Shown here in pieces: positions 10,859-51,704 of a DNA stretch of 64,000 bases. The stretch is taken from positions 1 through 64,000 of IMG/VR virus record IMGVR_UViG_3300012983_000044; one strand, 5' to 3'. Numbering within the stretch: the first letter of the stretch is position 1; each line of letters opens with the position of its first letter. The stretch is from a virus (Duplodnaviria; Caudoviricetes). The notes beneath the pieces were generated by a model. That model was not told where the DNA came from. It ran no database searches and was given only the letters and a program-made list of their open reading frames with translations. The translations under genes were made by a program, and so were the position numbers.

Positions 10859-11212
10859 ATGAGCAAGCAGATTAGCTTTGAATACAAGGGCAAGCCGTAT
10901 TGCCTTGAATATACACGCGCTTCTGTCAAGTACATGGAGCAAAATATGGGGTTCAACCCCAATGACATTCAGGACAAGTTGATGACGCGCCTGCCGCAGA
11001 TGTTCCGTGGCGCTTTCATCGCCCATCATCCCGACATCAAGAACAAGGTCGTCGAGGCTATCTATGACACCATGGACGACAAGACCAGCCTGTTCAAGTG
11101 CCTGTTTGAGATGTACAACGATCCCTACAATGAGATGCTGGAGTCTCCCAAGGGTGACAAGGGAAACGTAGTGACATGGACGGCGAACTGGAATATGGAG
11201 GACGAGGATTAA
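10859..11212 (+). CDS. Tail assembly chaperone (lambda G-like)
   Basis: Between tube and tape measure genes; carries the slippery heptamer near its 3' end. Confidence 0.8.
   Translation: MSKQISFEYKGKPYCLEYTRASVKYMEQNMGFNPNDIQDKLMTRLPQMFRGAFIAHHPDIKNKVVEAIYDTMDDKTSLFKCLFEMYNDPYNEMLESPKGDKGNVVTWTANWNMEDED
11161..11167 (+). promoter_or_regulatory. Programmed -1 ribosomal frameshift site G-GGA-AAC
   Basis: Canonical X XXY YYZ heptamer in the correct phase (GGA codon at 11162); the -1 frame is open into ORF 11176-11667. Confidence 0.85.
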
Positions 11213-11667
11213 TCGAGGATCAGCCGTCCGAAACTGAACAATCAAAAACGTATAAGAGCTATTCGGAGGTCTTTGACGCCGCTTTCCCCGAGTATCTTGC
11301 GATGGGCATGACGTATGACCTTTACTGGCATGGAGATGCTTCGCTGGTCAAAGCCTTCCGTAAAGCGAAAAAAATCAGGCGAGAAGAAAAAAACTTTGAA
11401 CTATGGCTTCAAGGGAAATACATTTACGAAGCCATTGGAGCGCTTGCACCCATTCTGAGGACTTCTTTAAGCAAAACTCCGGCGAAGGCTGAAAAATACG
11501 TCAGTAAGCCATATCCGCTTGACGGGGATGCGGCGAAGAAGGCCATAGAGAACGCACAGAAAGCGCGTATGATGGGCGCTTTGGAGAGATTCAAACGCGA
11601 AGCCGAAACAAAGCGGCTTAAACGATTACAGCAGGAAAAGGAGGCGAGAGAAAAAAATGGCGAATGA
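11161..11667 (+). CDS. Tail assembly chaperone extension (lambda T-like; 269-aa GT fusion)
   Basis: Open -1 frame from the slippery site to TAA 11665-11667. Confidence 0.8.
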   Translation, partial: GKRSDMDGELEYGGRGLIEDQPSETEQSKTYKSYSEVFDAAFPEYLAMGMTYDLYWHGDASLVKAFRKAKKIRREEKNFELWLQGKYIYEAIGALAPILRTSLSKTPAKAEKYVSKPYPLDGDAAKKAIENAQKARMMGALERFKREAETKRLKRLQQEKEAREKNGE

Positions 11668-14600
11668 AGGCACGAATGAAGTCAATATTGATCGGCTGTC
11701 AATAGAAGTCAGTGCAAACGCTGAGCCCGCCGCAAAAAGTATCGGTGACCTCGCCTCCGCTGTAAGGAAATTCAATTCTGAAATTGCGAAAAGCAAGGGC
11801 TTTGGAGGACTTGTTACTCTTGCGAACGTCTCCAAGACTGCATCGGACAATATGCAGGACGCTCCGAACAGGCTGCGCGATCTTGCAAATGCTCTGATCC
11901 AGATTTCCAACAGCACTAAGGGACTGAAAATACCATCCGACCTGACTAAGGGCCTTTCTGAAATCGGGACTGCCGTAAAGTCTATCAGCGCAAATATCGG
12001 TCAGCGTATGCAGTCTCTTGCGTCTGGTCTGTCTGCGCTTCGGGACGCGGGGGAAGTGCGGATTTCCAATTCCATTGGAACTGGCATTAACGCCATCAAT
12101 GATGCGCTGGCGAAACTGAATGTCAATAATCTGTCACGCATTGACAGGTTTGTTGAGAGTGTTCGTCAACTGGAAGGCATCAACGGTCTTACTATATCCG
12201 CAAGTTTGGCTCGTGAGATCACGAACATTGCTGAGGCTGCGGAATTGATCAGCGATGTGGATTTCACTCCGCTTCGAGATATGGGCAATGCCGTTGCTCA
12301 TCTTGCGGTTGCGAACGATGTCCGCATCAGCAATCGTCTGGCCGAAAACATCGTCAACCTCAGCGTTGCCGCTCAGGAAGTTCAGGGAACGGATTGGACT
12401 GAGTTTGAACGTATGGCAGAGGGCCTGCGCCATCTTGAAGGGCTTGGGCAGATTCGCATACCGAAAATACGTCCCACACAGCAGCACGTCAAACAGCGCA
12501 AGGACAGCGCCCAAAAGGTGCGTGACGCCAGCGCTACGCAAAATGGTGGAGGGATTGCTAACGCCACTGATGCTGCTGAGCGGGCTGCTGTTAATGTCGA
12601 ACGTCTGCGTGGTACACTGAAAAACGCCAATGATGTGCGTGCGTTTGTGAACGCCAACAGAGATACTGACATTCTTGCTGTGAGGCTGGCTGCGGCGAGG
12701 GATCGCTTACAGGACCTCATTAATACAGGCGAAGGAGAACTAAATCTGAACGCCATTGCCAACGCAACTGAACAAGTAAAGAAGCTTGAACGGGAGCTTG
12801 AAAATGCCCGGCACAGCTCTGTGCGTTTTGCCGAACAATTTGGCGGTGGCTTTGCCAAGGGTGCTGGAATTAGGGGGCTGGTCAGCCAAATTCAGCAGGT
12901 ATTCTCATCTCCCGGCAATGCCATTGGGTTTGGCCTTGGCGTAGCTGTGAGGTTTACGGTGACACAAATAGGTCATCTCACCTCCGCGCTGAAAAATGTC
13001 GGTATCAAGGCATTTACAACAGGCGTGAACGCGCTAAAGACTGCCCTGAACGGCATAGGCTCTGCGGCCATGGCTGCTGGCAAGGGCCTGGTTTCGCTTG
13101 GCAAAATGGGAGCGAGTGGCCTTGCCAGCATTGCAAATATCGAGTTCAAGAGCATTATGTCATTGCCTTCGCTGTTTGCCAACAACCTGAAAGATAGGAT
13201 TGCCGGTGTTGCAAAAAGCATCAGCGGATTTGTACGTTCGCTGGGACGCATTGCTTTTTACAGGGCAATTCGTACTGCGATCAAGGAAGTTACCAAGGCG
13301 TTTACTGATGGTATTGGCAATCTGTATCAGTGGAGTTTGCTGGTAGATCACACCTTTGCAAAGAGCATGGACAAGATTGCAACCTACATGCAGTATCTCA
13401 AAAACAGCCTGGGTGCAATGGTGGCTCCCATCATCAACACGCTTGCGCCAGCCATTGATTTTGTGGTGGATAAGTTTGTTGACGGTATCAACCTTGTGAA
13501 CCAGTTCCTTGCGGCGATTACCGGCAGCGACACCTATACTGCCGCGAAAAAGGTTGCGACGGAATGGGCTGAGAATGAGACCGAGAAGGCCAACAAGAAT
13601 CTGAAAGAGCTGAAAAAGACCATCCTTGGCTTCGATGAGCTGAATATTCTTAACAGGGACACTCGCACGGACGAGCAGAAAAATGGCAAGGAGGTTCCTG
13701 ACTATCGTTCGATGTTTGAAACCCGGAAAGTCGAAAATGACATTTCCGATTTCGCCAGGAAGATTCGTGAAGCGTTTGAGAACGGCGAATGGGCCAGTCT
13801 CGGCGGGATGTTTGCCGACAAGTTTAATGCCTTGGTGGATGGTATTGACTGGCCGGGTCTTGGAAAAAAGCTCGGTGACGGCCTGAATGGTCTCGCTGGT
13901 ATTTACAACGGATTCATGGATGGAGTGGATTGGGTTGGCCTTGGCGATAGTTTTGCTGATGGTCTTAATAGTCTTATTGAGACTGTAAATTGGCGCGAGC
14001 TGGGACGTTCGCTCACACAGCACATTGATGCTCTGTTTGGCGTGATAGCCGGGTTTGTCGAGAAGTTTGACTGGGTAAAGGCAGGTAAAGCCCTTGCCGA
14101 TGCTGTCTATGGCATGTTTGACGGCATTGACTGGGATCAGGTCGGGACAGCGATAGGCAAAGCACTGACTGGCCTCGGAGGAGCGCTACTCAGTTTTGCG
14201 GTAAACTTTCCGTGGGTTGAGGTCGGAACCAGGCTTGGAAATGGAGCGAACAAACTGTTTGAAAATATCAACTGGGAGACTATTGCCAACGGTCTGCTTG
14301 GTGCTTTCAATGGTGCTTTGGATTCACTACTGACTTTCATAAGCACTTTTAAGTGGACAAAGCACGGACAAGAGTTTGCAAAAGGCATTTTAAGGATCGT
14401 TGAGTATTTCCCGACTGCAAAAATGGTTGAATCCATTACATCTGCGCTTACTGGTGTCATGGACTTTATCCTTCCTACAATTACGGACCCTGAGTTTTGG
14501 GATGGTATCGGTGCTCAGTTCAAATCCGCAGTAAGTAAACTGTTCTTGCAGAGCAATCAGTTCTGGAGCACTCTTGGCGATACCGTACTGTCGCTATTCA

Positions 14601-17095
14601 AGGGCGCTTTGCGGTCCATTACGAAGTTTGCCAGTGAATTTGAGTGGGGGGAAGCAGGAAAGAAATTTGGCAATGCCATCTTTAAGATCGTTGACAACTT
14701 CCCGCTTAATGAGCTGGGAACTGCCTTGGAAACGCTCATGGAAGGCGCGTTTGACTTTGTGAATAACATGCTTGGGGAAGAAAACTCACAGATGTTCACA
14801 AAGTTCGGGGATAGGCTTGCCACGTTCTTCAATAATGCCTTTAGCAATAAGACGCTTTTTACCAAGGCTGGCGAAGCAGCCAACAAACTACTGCTTGGCA
14901 TTTTGTCAATCGGAGATTCATTTGTCCGTGGTTTTAACGCCAAAGAGGCCGGTGACAGCATTGCGAGGGCATTGGACAAGATTAATTGGAATACGATTGC
15001 CAGCACTACGTGGGTGCTTATAAAAGAAGCATTTAAGAAAACCGGAGACTTTCTTGATGCGCTGTTTGGAGATGGAACCCGGGTAGAATATGATTCAATG
15101 CTGCGCATGAATCGTATTATCAAAGATGATCGCAGTCTTGGTACGAAGATTGGAGCAAGGATTTCTGCTGCTATTGGGAGTATTGACTGGAAACAGTTTG
15201 GCGCAGATATAGGTAAGGGCGCAAGGGCACTCTTTAGTGCAATAGCAGATTTCTTTAACAAGCTCAGGGACGAAGGCGAGGTCCGAACTGCGATTACGAA
15301 TTTCTTCGCAGGGCTAAAAGTTCGTGAAACGGTTGACGCTGCTATCAGTGCGCTCGGTTCATTCTTTTCGTTTTTTGCCGATGCCTTTAGAGATTCTTTA
15401 TTGGAAGCACTTATTAATGCGTTGAATGGTGTAATAGGCAAAGCGTTGATAGGCAAAGAGAACTACGACGCCCTCGTTTCGGGGAATGTGGATGAAGGCT
15501 TAACCGGAACTGTGTTAAGAGCTCTTATGGGACCTGTGTATGATATGATCGGCAACATCGGTAAAGCAGGCGGTGTATTATTCGGCGGCCTGTTTGGTGG
15601 AGGTTCGGCTCTTGCCGAAGGTGAAGGCCAGGGGTTTACATTTGACACAAACTCCATTACCAACATGTTCATTCAGCCTGGAGGTATTCATGATGCTTTT
15701 GAACAAGGCTGGTCGTCCATCAACGCAATGACAAAAACGTGGATGGAAACCATACAGGGTACGATCTCTCAATCCATTCAGGGAATGGTTACACTGGTTC
15801 TGCAACCCTTGAACAACCTGACTGAAATCGGCATTCCTGGGATTCTACTCAGAATCAACGCTACTGTCACGACGGGGCTTAATGCCATTCAGCAGGCAGT
15901 TTCAGGCGAAGGCGGTATGCAGGGGCTTGTCACGCTGGTGTTGCAGCCTTTGAACAACCTGGCTGACGTTGGTGTTCCCAATAAAATAAACAGCATTGTT
16001 GGTACATTTACAAGTGGCTGGGGAAACATCAACTCTGCGACTGCAACCGCTATGACGCTGCTGCAAACCACGATAATGACGGCCCTTAGCAATCTGTCGA
16101 ATGTTGGAATCCCGACGAAGATGTCCAGTTTTAGCACAACCATTACAAGTGGTTGGAATGCAATAAACTCTGCGACTGCAACCGCTATGACGCTGTTCCA
16201 GAGTACCATACTGACTGCGCTGACTAACCTCGCAAGTGTCGGTTTTCCCACGAAAATGTCCAGTTTCCTTACTACGGTCAGCACGGGGTGGACATCTATA
16301 AACTCCAACACCGCTACATCCATGACGCAGTTCCAGAGTGTTATCATGCAGGCGATGAACAACCTGAGCAATGTTGGGATTCCGAACACGATGCGATCAA
16401 TCTCATCGACGTTCTCAAATGGGTTTTACAGCATCAGCGCTGGTGTGGCTACAACCATGACACAAGTGCAAAGCAGCGTTTTGCAAGCGTTGACAAACAT
16501 TGAGAACGTGCTGCCCGGGCGATTCAGGAACATGGTCAACAGCATCATCAGCGTATCAAACGGCATGATTGGTGGCGTTGAAAGCGCAACAAACAGCGTT
16601 GTCAATGGACTGAATAATGCTCTCCAGGTCCACTTGCGGTTTGACAAACCGTCATGGGCTGGCGGCGGGACTTACACTTGGGACTTTTATCCGAATCTGC
16701 CTCATGTGAATTTCGGGAGGATCAACGCGCTTGCCGAAGGCGGCATATTGGACGGCCCTATAATGCTGACACCCGATGTGCTTGCTGGAGAAGCCGGACG
16801 TGAGGCTGTGCTGCCGCTTGAAAGCCATACCGAGTGGATGGATGAAGTGGCCGAAAGGGTGTTGGCACAATCCGCCGAAAATGGGATTTCGCTGGCAACG
16901 AGCTATGACATTGGCGACTACGAGTACGAGCAAAACAGCGAACAGGAGCTTGCACTTTTGCGTGAACAAAACCGTCTGCTGCAACAGTTGATCGACAAGG
17001 ATTACAACTTTGAGATCACTACAGGGCAGTACGAAAAGGCGCAGCGCCGCACAAACCGCAGGGCCGGGAAAATGATCATTGCTACCGGCACCTAA
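11657..17095 (+). CDS. Tape measure protein
   Basis: 1812 aa, Ala/Gly-rich, periodic Trp/Phe repeats (IDW..LG), LAEGG...GEAGREAVLPL C-terminal motif. Confidence 0.93.
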   Translation: MANEGTNEVNIDRLSIEVSANAEPAAKSIGDLASAVRKFNSEIAKSKGFGGLVTLANVSKTASDNMQDAPNRLRDLANALIQISNSTKGLKIPSDLTKGLSEIGTAVKSISANIGQRMQSLASGLSALRDAGEVRISNSIGTGINAINDALAKLNVNNLSRIDRFVESVRQLEGINGLTISASLAREITNIAEAAELISDVDFTPLRDMGNAVAHLAVANDVRISNRLAENIVNLSVAAQEVQGTDWTEFERMAEGLRHLEGLGQIRIPKIRPTQQHVKQRKDSAQKVRDASATQNGGGIANATDAAERAAVNVERLRGTLKNANDVRAFVNANRDTDILAVRLAAARDRLQDLINTGEGELNLNAIANATEQVKKLERELENARHSSVRFAEQFGGGFAKGAGIRGLVSQIQQVFSSPGNAIGFGLGVAVRFTVTQIGHLTSALKNVGIKAFTTGVNALKTALNGIGSAAMAAGKGLVSLGKMGASGLASIANIEFKSIMSLPSLFANNLKDRIAGVAKSISGFVRSLGRIAFYRAIRTAIKEVTKAFTDGIGNLYQWSLLVDHTFAKSMDKIATYMQYLKNSLGAMVAPIINTLAPAIDFVVDKFVDGINLVNQFLAAITGSDTYTAAKKVATEWAENETEKANKNLKELKKTILGFDELNILNRDTRTDEQKNGKEVPDYRSMFETRKVENDISDFARKIREAFENGEWASLGGMFADKFNALVDGIDWPGLGKKLGDGLNGLAGIYNGFMDGVDWVGLGDSFADGLNSLIETVNWRELGRSLTQHIDALFGVIAGFVEKFDWVKAGKALADAVYGMFDGIDWDQVGTAIGKALTGLGGALLSFAVNFPWVEVGTRLGNGANKLFENINWETIANGLLGAFNGALDSLLTFISTFKWTKHGQEFAKGILRIVEYFPTAKMVESITSALTGVMDFILPTITDPEFWDGIGAQFKSAVSKLFLQSNQFWSTLGDTVLSLFKGALRSITKFASEFEWGEAGKKFGNAIFKIVDNFPLNELGTALETLMEGAFDFVNNMLGEENSQMFTKFGDRLATFFNNAFSNKTLFTKAGEAANKLLLGILSIGDSFVRGFNAKEAGDSIARALDKINWNTIASTTWVLIKEAFKKTGDFLDALFGDGTRVEYDSMLRMNRIIKDDRSLGTKIGARISAAIGSIDWKQFGADIGKGARALFSAIADFFNKLRDEGEVRTAITNFFAGLKVRETVDAAISALGSFFSFFADAFRDSLLEALINALNGVIGKALIGKENYDALVSGNVDEGLTGTVLRALMGPVYDMIGNIGKAGGVLFGGLFGGGSALAEGEGQGFTFDTNSITNMFIQPGGIHDAFEQGWSSINAMTKTWMETIQGTISQSIQGMVTLVLQPLNNLTEIGIPGILLRINATVTTGLNAIQQAVSGEGGMQGLVTLVLQPLNNLADVGVPNKINSIVGTFTSGWGNINSATATAMTLLQTTIMTALSNLSNVGIPTKMSSFSTTITSGWNAINSATATAMTLFQSTILTALTNLASVGFPTKMSSFLTTVSTGWTSINSNTATSMTQFQSVIMQAMNNLSNVGIPNTMRSISSTFSNGFYSISAGVATTMTQVQSSVLQALTNIENVLPGRFRNMVNSIISVSNGMIGGVESATNSVVNGLNNALQVHLRFDKPSWAGGGTYTWDFYPNLPHVNFGRINALAEGGILDGPIMLTPDVLAGEAGREAVLPLESHTEWMDEVAERVLAQSAENGISLATSYDIGDYEYEQNSEQELALLREQNRLLQQLIDKDYNFEITTGQYEKAQRRTNRRAGKMIIATGT
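15780..16400 (+). repeat. Internal degenerate repeats in tape measure gene
   Basis: QG(M/L)VTLVLQPLNNL twice; (S/T)GW..INS.TAT.MT four times, with DNA-level similarity (AACTCTGCGACTGCAACCGCTATGACGCTG twice). Bounds approximate. Confidence 0.7.
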
Positions 17096-39441: not shown

Positions 39442-40410
39442 TTGAACATTAAGAACATGAAGGTCTTTGCCGACACCCGCAAGATGTCCCATGAGGAATG
39501 GCTGGTGTCGCGCAGGAACGGCATTGGCGGCTCGGATGCAAGCTCCATACTGGGAGTGAATCCGTACAGTTCGCCGTTGAAGGTCTACCTGGACAAGATT
39601 GGCAAGGGCGAGGACAAGGAAACCAACGAGGCCATGCGCCAGGGCACGGACCTGGAGCAGTATGTGGCGGACAGATTCGTGGAGGCCACTGGAAAGAAGG
39701 TTCGCCGGTGCAACAAGATACTCCAGCACCCGGCATATCCGTGGATGCTTGCCAACATTGACCGGGACATCGTGGGGGAAAATGCCGGATTGGAGTGCAA
39801 GACCACTTCCCCGTATTCCAAGTTTGAGTTTGAGGAAGGCGAGATCAACCCGCACTACTACTGGCAGTGTGTTCACTACATGGCTGTGACCTGGGCGGAG
39901 AGATGGTATGTCAGCATCGTGGTCTTGGGCAAGGCCCATCACATCTTCTGCATTGAACGCGACGATGATTCCATTGCGACGCTCATCGAAGCTGAAAAGG
40001 ACTTCTGGCAAAACAATGTCGAGCGAAAGGTGCCGCCGCTTCCCACGGGGAGCGAGACAGACGATGACGCGATCCGCATGCTCTATCCCAAGGGCGAACA
40101 GGGTGATGCTTACATCGCCCTGGACTATGTGGACAATGTGCTGAACCTCCGAGCATTGAAGGTCAAGCAGCGCGACGAGCTACAGGCGGAGATCAACGAG
40201 ATAGATCAGCAGCTCAAAATGACCATGGGGACGTTTGAGCTTGGCATAAGCCCTAACTGGACGGTGCGTTGGACGAACACATGCAGCAACCGCATTGATA
40301 CCAAGGCGCTGAAAGCCAAATATCCGAAGATCGCGGCGGAAGTGACGAAACCCACGCCTGGACGGAGATTCAGCGTGGCGGCAGTGAAAAAGAATGAAAC
40401 CGATATATGA
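39442..40410 (+). CDS. YqaJ-like (lambda Exo family) recombination exonuclease
   Basis: WLVSRRNGIGGSD, LANIDR, LECKT, YYWQCVHYM. Confidence 0.93.
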   Translation: MNIKNMKVFADTRKMSHEEWLVSRRNGIGGSDASSILGVNPYSSPLKVYLDKIGKGEDKETNEAMRQGTDLEQYVADRFVEATGKKVRRCNKILQHPAYPWMLANIDRDIVGENAGLECKTTSPYSKFEFEEGEINPHYYWQCVHYMAVTWAERWYVSIVVLGKAHHIFCIERDDDSIATLIEAEKDFWQNNVERKVPPLPTGSETDDDAIRMLYPKGEQGDAYIALDYVDNVLNLRALKVKQRDELQAEINEIDQQLKMTMGTFELGISPNWTVRWTNTCSNRIDTKALKAKYPKIAAEVTKPTPGRRFSVAAVKKNETDI

Positions 40411-41083
40411 ACCGAAGGGCAAGGCCAAAGAATACGGAGATTTGGCCCTGAACATCTACACGGGTTGCCCACACAGATGTTTTTACTGTTTTGCACCCTC
40501 TGTACTGCGCCGCGACCGGGAGAAATTTCACAGCGATGTAAGGCCGCGTGAAAACATCGTCGAAGAAACCCGCAAGCAGTTGGAGCGCGAGAAGATCACT
40601 GACAGGTTGATTCACTTGTGCTTTACCTGTGATCCCTACCCTACCGGGTACAACACTTTGGTGACTCGGAGAATCATCGAAGTGCTGAAAGAATATGGGA
40701 ATCATGTTCAGATACTTACAAAGGGTGATGGTACGCGGGATTTCGACCTTCTGGATGACGAGGATTGGTACGGGATTACCATTGACGGCAATAAGGTGAT
40801 TTCTGCCGGATGTCCGCCTGTTTTTCAGATAAGGCGAGCAAAAGAACGCGGGATAAAAACGTGGGTGAGCTTTGAACCCGTTCTTGATACTGAGCGTGTG
40901 CTGTTTCTGATAGAAGCCATGGCCCCAACGATGGACAAGGTGAAAATCGGAAAACTGAACTATCATCCGTCCGACATCGACTGGAAGAAGTTCGGCAACG
41001 ATGCGGAAGCGCTTTGCAAAAGGCTTGGATTGGACTACTACATAAAGGATAGTCTGCGAGCAGAGATGGAAAAAGAAAAATGA
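40394..41083 (+). CDS. Radical SAM protein
   Basis: NIYTGCPHRCFYC (CxxxCxxC), DPYP, ILTK, TWVSFEP. Confidence 0.88.
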   Translation: MKPIYEPKGKAKEYGDLALNIYTGCPHRCFYCFAPSVLRRDREKFHSDVRPRENIVEETRKQLEREKITDRLIHLCFTCDPYPTGYNTLVTRRIIEVLKEYGNHVQILTKGDGTRDFDLLDDEDWYGITIDGNKVISAGCPPVFQIRRAKERGIKTWVSFEPVLDTERVLFLIEAMAPTMDKVKIGKLNYHPSDIDWKKFGNDAEALCKRLGLDYYIKDSLRAEMEKEK

Positions 41084-42032
41084 TGATGACTCATTTATCA
41101 CTGTTTAGCGGTATCGGTGGCCTGGATTTGGCAGCAGAGGCAGCAGGGTTTATCACTGTAGGGCAGTGTGAATGGGCTGACTATCAGACAAAAGTGCTTG
41201 AAAGGCACTGGCCTGATGTGCCGCGCTGGCGTGACATTCGGACGCTTACGGGAGATAGTTTCTATGAACGGACAGGATTACGAACAGTTGACGTTATTTC
41301 CGGAGGATTCCCTTGCCAGCCGTTTAGCCAAGCCGGGAAGCGAAAAGGCGAGGATGATGACCGTTACCTCTGGCCTGAAATGCTTAGAGTCATACAGGAG
41401 CTTCGGCCAACTTGGGTGCTTGGTGAAAACGTTGCTGGGATCATCAATCTGGCACTCGACTCGGTGCTTTCTGACTTGGAAAATATCGGCTACTCCACGC
41501 AAGCGTTTAATATTCCGGCTTGTGGCGTCGATGCCCCGCATAAGAGAGAACGAATCGCTATTCTGGCCTACTCCATCGACGGGAGCAGCGCTTTGCGGCG
41601 GAACAGGGAACTTCAAGACATTGAAGAAAATGGCCGAAAAAGGGCTGATAACAGAGAGCGAACGTCGGCAGTTATCGCAAGGGAACGGAGGCAAGACAAA
41701 CCCGGCGCTATTGGAATGGTTGATGGGTTACGAGCAGCAGTTTACAAGGCTGATATTAACCCCTACAGCGACGGATTACAAAGGCGGATCAATGACGCGC
41801 TGCTGGACGACCAGAAAATTGCGGGGGGGGGTGGGTTCGAGTGTTCGAGCCTGCGCCACTTCCTGGAGATCACTCCGCTTGGGAAAATTGGCCAGATGAA
41901 CCCGGAGTGGATAGAGTGGTTGATGGGATACCCAATCGGGTGGACCGAATTAGATGTCTCGGAAACGCGGTAGTGCCACAACAGTTTTATCCGTTTTTCA
42001 AGGTTATATACGATATTGAGAAGGAGGAATAA
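41080..42032 (+). CDS. C5-cytosine DNA methyltransferase, frameshifted at G9 (41823-41831)
   Basis: SLFSGIGG (I), GGFPCQPFS (IV), ENV (VI), RERI (VIII). Motif X (RIRCLGNAVVP) lies in the -1 frame (ORF 41841-42032); G10 restores 317 aa. Confidence 0.88.
41264..41973 (+). CDS. Overprinted partner ORF inside the methyltransferase gene (WPTP...NPxxxEWLMG), also broken at G9
   Basis: Own RBS GGGAG before ATG 41264; two TP...NP..EWLMGY units, the second completed only with G10 (236 aa). Confidence 0.7.
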
Positions 42033-46734: not shown

Positions 46735-47295
46735 ATGAGTTTATTGGGGAGCCGGATCGCAGGAGGCAACACGGCCTACAATCGCGTGAAGTCAGATTTT
46801 TACCCTACCCCCCCCGAAGCGACACAAGCACTTCTGAATTTCCTTAGACTGCCGATTGGCACAAAGGTGTGGGAACCTGCGTATGGCAGCGGATGTATGG
46901 CGGAGGTTATGAGAAAGAATGGGCTGACTGTAATCGGAACCGATATTGAAACCGGAACCGATTATCTGACGGCAAGCCTTCCTGAAAGTGACGTGTCGTG
47001 GATCATAACCAACCCTCCGTTTTCTATTGCGGATGGATTCATTGAGCGCAGTTATGAGCATTGCCTGCCATTTGCATTGCTCTTAAAGACACAGTTCTGG
47101 CACGCACGAAAGAGGTACGATATGTTCGCAAAGAATCGTCCTGCCTATATTCTGCCGCTTACATGGCGTCCGGACTTTATGTTCAAGCAACGTGGGAAAG
47201 GCTCTCCGCTTATGGATGTTACGTGGACTGTGTGGATTCCCGGAAACCACAAGAGTGCCTACATACCACTTAAAAAGCCAGTGACAAGCCCGTAG
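46735..47295 (+). CDS. Putative amino (N6-adenine/N4-cytosine) methyltransferase with in-frame C8 tract
   Basis: DFYPTP, VWEPAYGSG (motif I), IITNPPF (motif IV); C8 at 46808-46815. Confidence 0.8.
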   Translation: MSLLGSRIAGGNTAYNRVKSDFYPTPPEATQALLNFLRLPIGTKVWEPAYGSGCMAEVMRKNGLTVIGTDIETGTDYLTASLPESDVSWIITNPPFSIADGFIERSYEHCLPFALLLKTQFWHARKRYDMFAKNRPAYILPLTWRPDFMFKQRGKGSPLMDVTWTVWIPGNHKSAYIPLKKPVTSP

Positions 47296-48715: not shown

Positions 48716-49411
48716 CGTATGAGGAGTTTTTGCAGGGAAAGATTGACATTGCGGAAGAGACGGGGATTGTCGTTGAATCGGAAGCTGTCAATCCAGCGCT
48801 GAAACCGCATCAGAGAGACGCAGTTTTGTGGGCTTTAAGGGGGGGGAAGAAGGGCGCTGTTTGAAAGCTTTGGGCTTGGCAAAACCGTTCAACAGCTGGA
48901 ATGGTCGAGACTGATTCACGAGCGTACAGGCGTCAGGGTTCTGATCGTGTGTCCGCTTGGTGTCAAGCAGGAATTTCAGTTGGATGCGATTCGACTGCTG
49001 AAATGGCTGGCAGCACCGCCGTATGTGCGGACGGATGCGGAGGCGGCGGCGACGGACGCGCCGATTGTGCTGACCAACTACGAGCGCGTGCGGGACGGGG
49101 ACATCGACCCGAAGCGGTTCGGCGCGGTGTCGCTGGATGAGGCGAGCTGTCTGAGAAGCTATGGCAGTAAGACCTATGCTCTTGTATTACTGAAATCTCA
49201 GGAGCAGGAGTTGCGTTACCGCACACCCCAAAAGGTAGAACACGAAGCCACGCTCAAAAGGTGTTGCACCTGTCCGTCGTGCGGAAACGTGCTGGATCAG
49301 TTTGAACAGTTTGGAGTGGGAAAAGTCAGGATCATGAACGATTATTGCCACTTCTGCGGCCAGGCGTTGGATTGGAGCGACGAGGAAAAGAGTTTAGTGA
49401 GGTTCAAATGA
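48712..49411 (+). pseudogene. Truncated SNF2-like helicase N-terminus (frameshift at G8 48839-48846) fused to a zinc-ribbon C-terminus
   Basis: LKPHQ..AV, FGLGKT (motif I), TNYE, LDEAS (motif II). After GSKTY the sequence turns into an unrelated CPSCG...YCHFCGQALDW domain; helicase C-terminal motifs are absent. Confidence 0.7.
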
Positions 49412-50065: not shown

Positions 50066-50536
50066 TTGATCTACATAGGGGTCGATCCCGGAAAGAAAGG
50101 CGGTTTCTGCCTGCTTGAACAGGGTGCAAGCGGTCAACGGACTGTCGAGGTCTATCCGTGGGACGACGACGAATTTGTACACAAGATGCGGATGCTCGCA
50201 GAGGATGATGACATCCGTAAGGCCGGGATCGTTGCGGCAGTGGAGAGGGTTGGAGCCATGCATGGCCAGGGTGTAACGAGCATGTTTTCTTTCGGACGTT
50301 CCCTGGGGTTCATTGAGGGTGTGCTTTCCGGGTGCTGGATCAGCTATCAGCTTGTACCTCCGAACGTCTGGAAGAAGTCGTTCTCGCTGATTGGCAAGGA
50401 CAAACAGGCGTCTATTGAGACCTGCAAGAGGCTGTTTCCAGGGATAAACCTGCTGCCCAGTGACAGGTGCAGGAAAGAATCGGATGGTGAAGCCGAAAGT
50501 GTCCTTTTGGCGGAGTACGCGAGGAGAAACCTATGA
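50066..50536 (+). CDS. RuvC-like Holliday junction resolvase
   Basis: YIGVDPGKKGG, VERV, GVTSMFSFG, W.K, DG.AE..LLA. Confidence 0.85.
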   Translation: MIYIGVDPGKKGGFCLLEQGASGQRTVEVYPWDDDEFVHKMRMLAEDDDIRKAGIVAAVERVGAMHGQGVTSMFSFGRSLGFIEGVLSGCWISYQLVPPNVWKKSFSLIGKDKQASIETCKRLFPGINLLPSDRCRKESDGEAESVLLAEYARRNL

Positions 50537-51704
50537 ACGACCAAATGAAAATAACTTCTGATGGACGAATCAAGGGTGAACATGAGTGGAAGGTTGAGGC
50601 CGCAATAAAGCGGCTGCAATCCTTTGAACCGAAAAACGGGGAGGGCTACTACCTTGCGTTTTCAGGTGGCAAGGACAGCCAGTGCGTATACCATCTGTGT
50701 AAGATGGCCGGGGTGAAGTTTGACGCACACTATGCCATTACAAGCGTTGATCCGCCAGAGCTGATCTATTTCATCCGCGAACATTACCCGGATGTCGAAT
50801 TTACCCGCCAGCACTATGACGACGGGAAACCCGAACACTACTATCCGGACGGACGCCCGAAACCTATTACCATGTGGAGTTTGATCGCGGATCACACACT
50901 GCCCCCGACACGCAAGGTACGTTACTGCTGTGCCTCGCTAAAGGAGCCGGGGGGGGATCGCGCGTAGTGGTCACGGGCGTTCGATGGGCCGAGAGCAATA
51001 ACCGGAAGCAGACCCATGGTGTGGCGAACATCCAGGGCAAGCCGAAGCATACGCAGCGGATTGCGGATGAATATGGGGCTGAGTACAAACTGAATAAGCA
51101 CGGCGAAGTCATCATGAATGACGATAACGATGCGAACAGACGGATGCTGGAGCATTGCTATCGTACACAGAAAACGATGGTAAACCCAATCGTGGATTGG
51201 GCTGACGAGGATGTATGGGATTTTCTGAACGAAAACAACATACCGCATTGCTGTCTGTATGACGAGGGTTATACGAGGCTGGGCTGCATTGGCTGTCCGC
51301 TGGCCGGGACAAAGCAAATGCTCCGAGACTTTGAACGCTATCCGAAGTACAAAGAAGCCTATATCCGGGCATTTCAGAGGATGATCGACAACCATCCCGG
51401 GCAGATCAAAATATTGGACCCGAACAGCGATACCAAGTTCAAGCTGGATGTGCCTGACGAAATCGGGGGGGTGGGGGATTCACAGGTGTTACTTCCGAAC
51501 CGCCAAAGCGGCATATCAATGGTATCTCAGCGGAAGCTACGAGATACGGAGCTGAAACCGTGTTCAGGTTCTTCACCACAAACTGTAACAGATAATTCTG
51601 CGGGGGGGTGCGGATTCTTGCAGAAGCGATGTTCAGACGATGGATCAGGTTCTCGATGTGCTGAATACGTGTTCACGCATTGGGTGGAAATGGGCGCTAT
51701 TTGA
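50533..51704 (+). CDS. PAPS-reductase-family protein, frameshifted at G8 (50949-50956)
   Basis: AFSGGKDS, CC..LKE then (-1 frame) TGVRWAES, NPIVDW, RLGCIGCP; G9 restores 390 aa. Confidence 0.85.

Follow-up and report, generated by a model that had tools for sequence, protein, structure and literature searches.

In the 64,000-nucleotide stretch of phage DNA analyzed here (the window: positions 1 to 64,000 of the IMG/VR record IMGVR_UViG_3300012983_000044, Caudoviricetes), a putative cytosine-5 DNA methyltransferase (C5-MTase) gene is written in two overlapping reading frames, an alpha chain and a beta chain nested inside it, and both are broken by a single run of nine G at 41823-41831. We propose that this run is probably a slipped-strand contingency switch, the window copy standing in the -1 register. 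As read from the sequences, the switch is well supported, and this support comes solely from differences between contigs: throughout the clade to which the window belongs, a simple repeat occupies the same site of the gene, and the register differences between clade members map to that repeat.

The alpha chain (frame A, position mod 3 = 1) lies, like all features described below, on the + strand. From the sequence and the reading of the open reading frames (ORFs), it starts at the ATG at 41080, its portion upstream of the tract covers 41080-41822, and the ORF as assembled runs over 41080-41973. FSGIGG, GGFPCQPFS, GENV and HKRER, i.e. motifs I, IV (PCQ at 41311-41319), VI and VIII of C5-MTases, occupy positions 41080-41575 in the order expected from PF00145; this Pfam profile was matched over its positions 1-166 of 324 (E = 1.9e-37), and TIGR00675 (dcm) was also matched (E = 1e-30). 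A linker showing no amino-acid constraint follows from about 41575. Frame B, which is +1 relative to frame A, starts inside it at the ATG at 41264, separated by a 9-nt spacer from a GGGAG Shine-Dalgarno (SD) sequence at 41250-41254. It encodes the beta chain over 41264-41822 and is open as far as 41899. We recognized this chain from its match to phrog_1008 (E = 7e-29), from 1296 database homologues and from the selection acting on it. Its N-terminal domain contains EQLTLFPEDS... and SSIWHSTRC.LTWK, and its variable region is made of WPTP / PTPxAxDYKG modules with an internal NPALLEWLMGY.

The G9 homopolymer, whose exact extent was read from the sequence, is the only run of at least nine identical bases in the window. 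Downstream of it, NPEWIEWLMGYPIGWTEL is read in frame A up to a stop at 41973 and is joined to the alpha linker, not to beta; the motif-IX-like C-terminal module of beta, TPLGKIGQMNPEWIEWLMGYPIGWTEL (41832-41973), thus sits in frame A here. The C-terminal module of alpha, WENWPDEPGVDRVVDGIPNRVDRIRCLGNAVVPQQ, which carries motif X (41832-42032), is orphaned in the mod-3 = 0 frame: RIRCLGNAVVP is -1 relative to frame A, and the motif X module WPDEPGV...RIRCLGNAVVPQQ ends at the stop at 42032. The truncated beta is left with an out-of-register tail of about 22 codons (41832-41899, stop at 41897-41899). The first-pass annotation had claimed that the tract separates motifs I-VIII of frame A from motif X and that it also cuts frame B, with its ATG at 41264 and its own GGGAG, from its natural end NPEWIEWLMGYPIGW; our reading of coordinates and frames confirms both claims. 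The repair by one G that it proposed is borne out by arithmetic, since adding a G lengthens 41080-42032 to 954 nt (317 aa) and 41264-41973 to 711 nt (236 aa). Either G10 or G7 at this site would bring both chains into register, and intact relatives show exactly the two products predicted by the one-G repair. In one of these in-register relatives, L005, motif X and motifs I-VIII belong to one chain, which is not so in the window, and two anchors of the beta frame are 200 nt apart in the window (mod 3 = 2) versus 180 or 183 nt in in-register relatives. The fully nested layout is found in the window only when the tract is read as G10, both ORFs being broken at 41823-41831 as assembled.

The nested layout extends far beyond the window. 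Nested alpha/beta pairs were found in about 70 IMG/VR loci. Taking phages and bacteria together, about 100 related loci retain the +1 ORF inside alpha and a conserved start for it. The +1 ORF is open over 190-295 codons in almost every relative, versus only about 30-100 codons for the +2 frame, and the beta ATG, 13 codons upstream of the motif-IV position and preceded by a GGAG-like SD, is kept in nearly all related loci. In in-register relatives a TPLGKIGQMNPEWIEWLMGYPIGWTEL-type module ends the +1 ORF and the motif X module ends frame A. The end of beta, NPxWxEWLMGxPxGW, would correspond to motif IX by its pattern and by its position before motif X in actinophage beta chains; Pfam gave it no score. 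Paenibacillus phage Likha carries a 345-aa methylase with a 234-aa methylase nested inside, both annotated as coding sequences; two papers on Paenibacillus larvae phages list two "DNA-cytosine methyltransferase" genes and do not discuss nesting. Intact nested pairs are also present in Lacticaseibacillus phage R9.1 and in one faecal phage contig, in both of which the pair is unannotated. When species-representative genomes were searched with a beta profile, 51 of the 59 resolved loci, from many bacterial phyla, displayed the nested layout, which is therefore widespread and under-annotated. A few beta matches, not among the resolved loci, came from contigs labeled archaeal. The clade-specific peptide of the variable region had no relative in these genomes, although the beta profile did find relatives there. 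In the prophage of E. coli PT62 (L124, 898-1657), an annotated 245-aa cytosine methylase is overlapped nearly throughout by an unannotated 251-aa +1 ORF that ends QLNPQWVEWFMGWPIGWTEL; the comparison of the beta profile with the nested ORF of the E. coli prophage by hhalign gave 99.1%.

We considered whether the two frames could instead yield one polypeptide through two programmed frameshifts, from A to B after motif VIII and from B to A before motif X. This was rejected, because the N-terminus of beta (about 100 codons) and the spacer of alpha (about 100 codons) are open in all in-register relatives, and because beta has its own conserved SD and ATG while synonymous changes in alpha are suppressed from exactly the beta start. 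Fusion proteins that pass from A to B do exist in databases (P0062, P0087, P0135, P0137 and P0144), with the frame change at differing places, and we took each of them for a frameshifted copy or an assembly error. Three of them, P0135, P0137 and P0144, are near-identical proteins of 414-415 aa that pass from the alpha N-terminus to the beta frame, each at a point of its own, the three points falling inside some 15 codons around motif IV. These junctions may mark a second slippage-prone spot, or an assembly error.

Both frames are under selection, each over its own part of the overlap. Substitutions were counted by the Nei-Gojobori method, as proportions of synonymous (pS) and nonsynonymous (pN) differences. 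The pS of frame A is 0.73-0.81 before the beta start, falls to 0.30-0.53 over the overlap with the beta N-terminal domain and is 0.69 after the beta stop, where pN is 0.08. Over the variable region in the window's clade, frame B has a pS of 0.67 and a pN of 0.225 (ratio 0.34), and the same bases read in frame A give a pS of 0.226 and a pN of 0.366 (apparent pN/pS of 1.62); in the SSIWHSTRC.LTW motif of beta, pN is 0.06 in frame B. Frame A is constrained over motifs IV-VIII and X, and frame B over the variable region, the C-terminal motif and the SSIWHSTRC.LTW block; the middle of alpha is merely kept open. Along with the open +1 ORF and the conserved start and SD, these values bear out the earlier claim that the gene is dual-coded. 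The AlphaFold2 (AF2) model of the L005 alpha is mostly confident for residues 1-170 and 294-313, and residues 171-293 have a predicted local distance difference test score (pLDDT) below 50. Its best match in the PDB is M.HhaI (E = 1.6e-13, about 172 columns), and other C5-MTases were matched too.

The site of the G9, which we call the hinge, lies between the last PTPxAxDYKG module of beta and its TPLG...NPxWxEWLMG end. We compared it in 38 clade contigs, plus one metagenome-assembled genome (MAG; L127) with G6; the tract of L100 is not among the lengths measured. A simple repeat is present at this point in every scorable clade member (G7-G12, C9, (AG)6-15.5 or (CA)6.5-10.5), translated as Gly runs, (Glu-Arg)n or (His-Thr)n. 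With contingency tracts defined as at least 7 G or at least 6 dinucleotide units, the G9 of the window is one of them. Ten of the 38 contigs are in register, 19 are at -1 like the window, 8 are at +1, and one, L093, is shifted elsewhere, at an AGAGAGA of motif VIII. On the contrary, the unique relatives without a repeat (about 40) are all in register (Fisher p = 3.9e-13 versus the repeat-bearing clade). Motif IX is always displaced from the frame of upstream beta by as much as motif X is from that of alpha, as expected from one indel at the hinge. Two pairs with otherwise matching context differ by a single G, L021 (G8, -1) from L032 (G9, in register) and L014 (G8, -1) from L005 (G9, in register). 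Tract lengths, which the first-pass annotation had proposed to compare across related genomes, thus differ among close relatives and explain the change of frame.

A tree built from sequence that precedes the hinge unites the repeat-bearing clade (Shimodaira-Hasegawa-like approximate likelihood ratio test support of 89) and requires the register to have changed at least 15 times and the repeat type at least 10 times. Sisters on this tree differ in register, for example the window (-1) and L005 (in register). The slipped-strand switch suggested by the first-pass annotation is supported by this pattern, in which the homologous site is always a simple repeat across the clade and relatives stand in different registers. 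Clade members are also carried by two MAGs named Ruminococcaceae and Oscillospiraceae, one with (AG)8 in register, the other with (AG)11 at +1. The closest bacterial matches are MAGs named Ruminococcaceae, Oscillospiraceae and Succinivibrionaceae, and the phage host is probably to be sought among the first two. The shift of L093 (IMGVR_UViG_3300031760_003876) occurs at AAGAGAGA of motif VIII and not at the hinge, so that the N-terminal part of beta continues into the alpha spacer and motif X.

On this basis, the locus would encode an orphan phage C5-MTase of the M.EcoHK31I type, with two chains in overlapping frames. Its neighbors are a radical-SAM ORF upstream (40394-41083), whose stop overlaps the alpha ATG (ATGA), and a DUF6275 ORF downstream; no restriction gene adjoins it. 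The alpha chain would provide the large, catalytic domain, made up of motifs I-VIII, motif X and the unconstrained spacer between them. Beta, translated from its own SD and ATG inside alpha, would contribute a domain for association at its N-terminus, the variable region with its PTP repeats and the end that resembles motif IX, the two chains presumably assembling into one enzyme. The hypermutable repeat would sit where the alpha spacer overlaps the last linker of beta, probably the only stretch where any sequence is tolerated in both frames. Slipped-strand mispairing during replication could then alter the tract length, each change re-registering both chains together. In register, both chains would be complete, and the phage DNA presumably methylated and guarded from Type II restriction. 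One base off, alpha would lack motif X and beta motif IX, and with these losses the enzyme would presumably be inactive; the window copy would be in this OFF state. Unmethylated phage DNA would in turn escape methylation-dependent (Type IV) restriction. Switching would presumably be reversible and frequent within a population, its benefit being an alternation between these two kinds of protection.

One could also imagine, though we hold it doubtful, that the hinge works as a three-position module shuffler, each register having its own activity or specificity, and that it belongs to a multi-locus poly-G "phasome" of the phage. Register 0 would then give alpha-X and beta-IX; register -1 would give alpha-IX with a short X peptide, possibly started at a GTG just past the purine-rich tract; register +1 would give beta-X, a layout resembling that of actinophages. 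In the window, a GTG at 41841 would open a 63-aa ORF carrying the orphaned motif X module. The poly-G loci of such a phasome would lie in the C5-MTase (41823), SNF2-like (48839) and PAPS-reductase-like (50949) genes, and, if real, it would generate epigenetic variants in combination, hedging the phage's bets against both restriction and methylation-dependent defense.

All G/C runs of at least 8 in the window are found within the early/DNA-modification region at 41.8-51 kb. A G8 at 48839-48846 (in 48808-48900) lies between a SNF2-type start ..HQRDAVLWALRGG (frame 1) and ..FGLGKTVQQL (frame 2). The SNF2-like gene is out of register at this tract and needs -1 or +2 nt, a direction opposite to that of the methylase tract. 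Another G8, at 50949-50956, is located where ORF 50533-50967 and ORF 50874-51704 overlap. In the latter ORF only the C-terminal part of Pfam PAPS_reduct was matched (profile positions 102-174 of 175), and the tract seems, from the sequence, to split a PAPS-reductase-family gene; there are G7 runs further on, at 51465 and 51602. A C8 at 46808-46815 is in frame inside ORF 46735-47295. Elsewhere, an A7 at 11651-11657 marks the junction of ORF 11158-11664 with a 5.5-kb ORF (11573-17092) and looks like the usual tail-chaperone frameshift site before a tape-measure gene.

Coming back to the contingency switch, several observations speak against it. The G9 in itself is unremarkable, 46% of mononucleotide shuffles of the window containing a G/C run of at least 9, and the case therefore depends on the comparison with relatives. 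Neither Pfam nor NCBIfam recognized the beta chain, and the beta profile gave only a chance-level match among PDB sequences (E = 1.6). The AF2 prediction of beta alone, from a 45-sequence alignment, reached a pLDDT of 46.6, too low for a fold search. Beta was assigned as the small domain plus motif IX from its motif pattern, its position and its homology to the beta chains of actinophages. Moreover, the target-recognition domain of M.EcoHK31I is placed on its alpha chain in the literature, whereas the alpha middle of the window's clade is unconstrained and predicted disordered, the conserved variable-region modules being in beta, so the organization may differ. Scans with exact flanking patterns, in viral and metagenome contigs from which near-identical records were excluded, returned no tract-length variant of the window's phage. 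The evidence for switching comes entirely from metagenome assemblies, which could miscall long repeats; the -1 register is over-represented (19/38, p = 0.04), possibly through under-calling; and the two G8 tracts at frame breaks (48839 and 50949) fit either several contingency loci or poly-G assembly error.

These last points lead to the explanation that the real phage has G10 and that the G9 of the contig is a homopolymer error of sequencing or assembly, the gene being an intact nested alpha/beta methyltransferase. We regard it as unlikely, even though three of the four G/C runs of at least 8 in the window stand at frame breaks, the -1 register is in excess within the clade, and metagenome assemblies are the sole data. 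Dinucleotide repeats, (AG)8-15.5 and (CA)6.5-10.5, which are less error-prone, are spread over the same registers, and +1 registers are found besides -1. In the window itself, the break at 48839 needs a correction opposite in direction to those at 41823 and 50949, which argues against a uniform bias. Elsewhere in the window, ORFs of 5.5 and 6 kb are intact, the large structural ORFs are unbroken, and A/T runs, of 7 at most, cause no breaks. Finally, even if the length were wrong, a tract of at least 9 G within a coding region would itself be hypermutable. 

Slippage could also act at the level of expression, RNA polymerase or ribosomes slipping on the GGG codons to yield some in-register product, in which case the tract would set a low dose and would not be a heritable switch. 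On a G run tRNA-Gly re-pairs perfectly in either shifted frame, long homopolymers are known for transcriptional slippage, and a predicted hairpin (z = -2.35) has the tract in its 5' arm. We nevertheless find this quite improbable as an account of the locus: the (AG)n, (CA)n and C9 repeats that relatives bear at the same site are not slippery heptamers, all three registers occur, and the window tract is within the stem and not upstream of it. Programmed ribosomal frameshifting would call for a conserved heptamer, a downstream structure and a fixed register; here repeat type and register vary. As repeat types differ and no conserved downstream stimulator was found, slippage does not explain the pattern of the clade. 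It is compatible with switching at the DNA level, no substitute for it, and slippage on the G9 may leave the OFF state leaky. A decaying pseudogene, in which the frameshift would be the first lesion of a methyltransferase no longer needed, could account for the 28 of 38 clade members out of register, for the extra shift of L093 at the AGAGAGA of motif VIII and for a stop in the beta of L061. However, in out-of-register copies the modules flanking the hinge are open and under purifying selection, the breaks are limited to the repeat, and in- and out-of-register copies are interleaved on the tree. No further stop or frameshift was seen in the flanking modules among the scored loci, L093 excepted, which is not the picture of ordinary decay, and we consider this explanation very improbable.

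What would be the benefit for a phage to keep a slippery repeat in a methylase gene? The target gene decides whether phage DNA is marked against restriction, and a whole clade of uncultured phages retains the repeat at one exact site. Since the type of repeat changes at a kept site and registers are distributed roughly at random across genomes, mutability itself seems to be what is selected. Phase-variable methyltransferases have been well studied in bacterial pathogens, and phage contingency loci have been proposed only recently, mostly for receptor-binding genes and T-even phages. The site being in a doubly coded stretch, a single slip edits two proteins; the locus offers a compact natural case of how overlapping genes limit where a switch can sit and can exploit it. 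The M.EcoHK31I-type nested beta, usually deemed a curiosity, is moreover widespread, occurring, mostly without annotation, in phages and prophages from many bacterial phyla, and methylome annotations that call alpha only may overlook a required subunit.

A first parallel can be drawn with M.EcoHK31I from E. coli (recognition sequence YGGCCR; Lee, Kam & Shaw 1995), as far as it is described in PMC2836561 and PMC3404938. It is a two-polypeptide C5-MTase whose beta lies within alpha and is read in a different frame; it needs both chains, and association depends on the N-terminal part of beta. The nesting of two chains was thus already known, our comparison being made with the published description, and it is the hinge repeat that has been less described. 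As in M.EcoHK31I, the beta ORF of the window's relatives lies wholly inside alpha, in another frame and with its own start. The gene studied here differs in being phage-borne, and these two papers mention no simple repeat or phase variation for M.EcoHK31I. In the literature searched, no nested methylase was described as having a repeat where it is dual-coded, and the clade-wide conservation of such a hinge was not reported either.

A second parallel concerns M.AquI and the two-gene methylases of actinophages, such as Mycobacterium phage Rebeuca (gp80/gp79), Kingsley (gp70/71) and Gordonia phage Geodirt (gp4), which are also two-chain C5-MTases with chains in different overlapping frames. The PTP repeats and the (E/A)W(L/M)MG.P.GW motif are common to the beta chains of both types, and hhalign gave 95% between the beta profile and Geodirt gp4. 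In the actinophages (E/A)WMMG.P.GW is followed by IGNGV in the same frame, which supports the reading of the beta end as motif IX. In Geodirt (L086, 858-2076) only the beta-type gp4 (1210-2076) is annotated as a DNA methyltransferase; an unannotated 297-aa ORF with motifs I-VIII (858-1751) shares about 540 nt with it in a different frame. Unlike in the window's type, the actinophage beta comes after alpha, with both IX and X in a single frame, alpha ending past motif VIII; in the window's type X is back in the frame of alpha, so that beta is fully nested. The +1 register of the clade, with beta joined to X, partly resembles the actinophage layout but without IX.

Simple-repeat contingency is the basis of the phase-variable methyltransferases of Haemophilus, Neisseria, Helicobacter and Campylobacter. 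For phages, poly-G phase variation has been documented in Fletchervirus receptor-binding genes, a methylase gene of Bordetella phage BPP-1 was noted to contain a poly-G tract, with no follow-up, and T2/T4 have recently been proposed to carry contingency loci (bioRxiv 10.1101/2025.10.21.683753). The locus described here resembles such systems in that a homopolymer or dinucleotide repeat within an ORF sets the frame, the register differs among close relatives and the target is a modification enzyme. It differs from them in that the repeat type turns over (G, C, AG, CA) at a fixed site, switching being deduced between contigs, and in that one tract, placed in a dual-coded stretch, re-registers two chains and swaps their C-terminal modules between frames.

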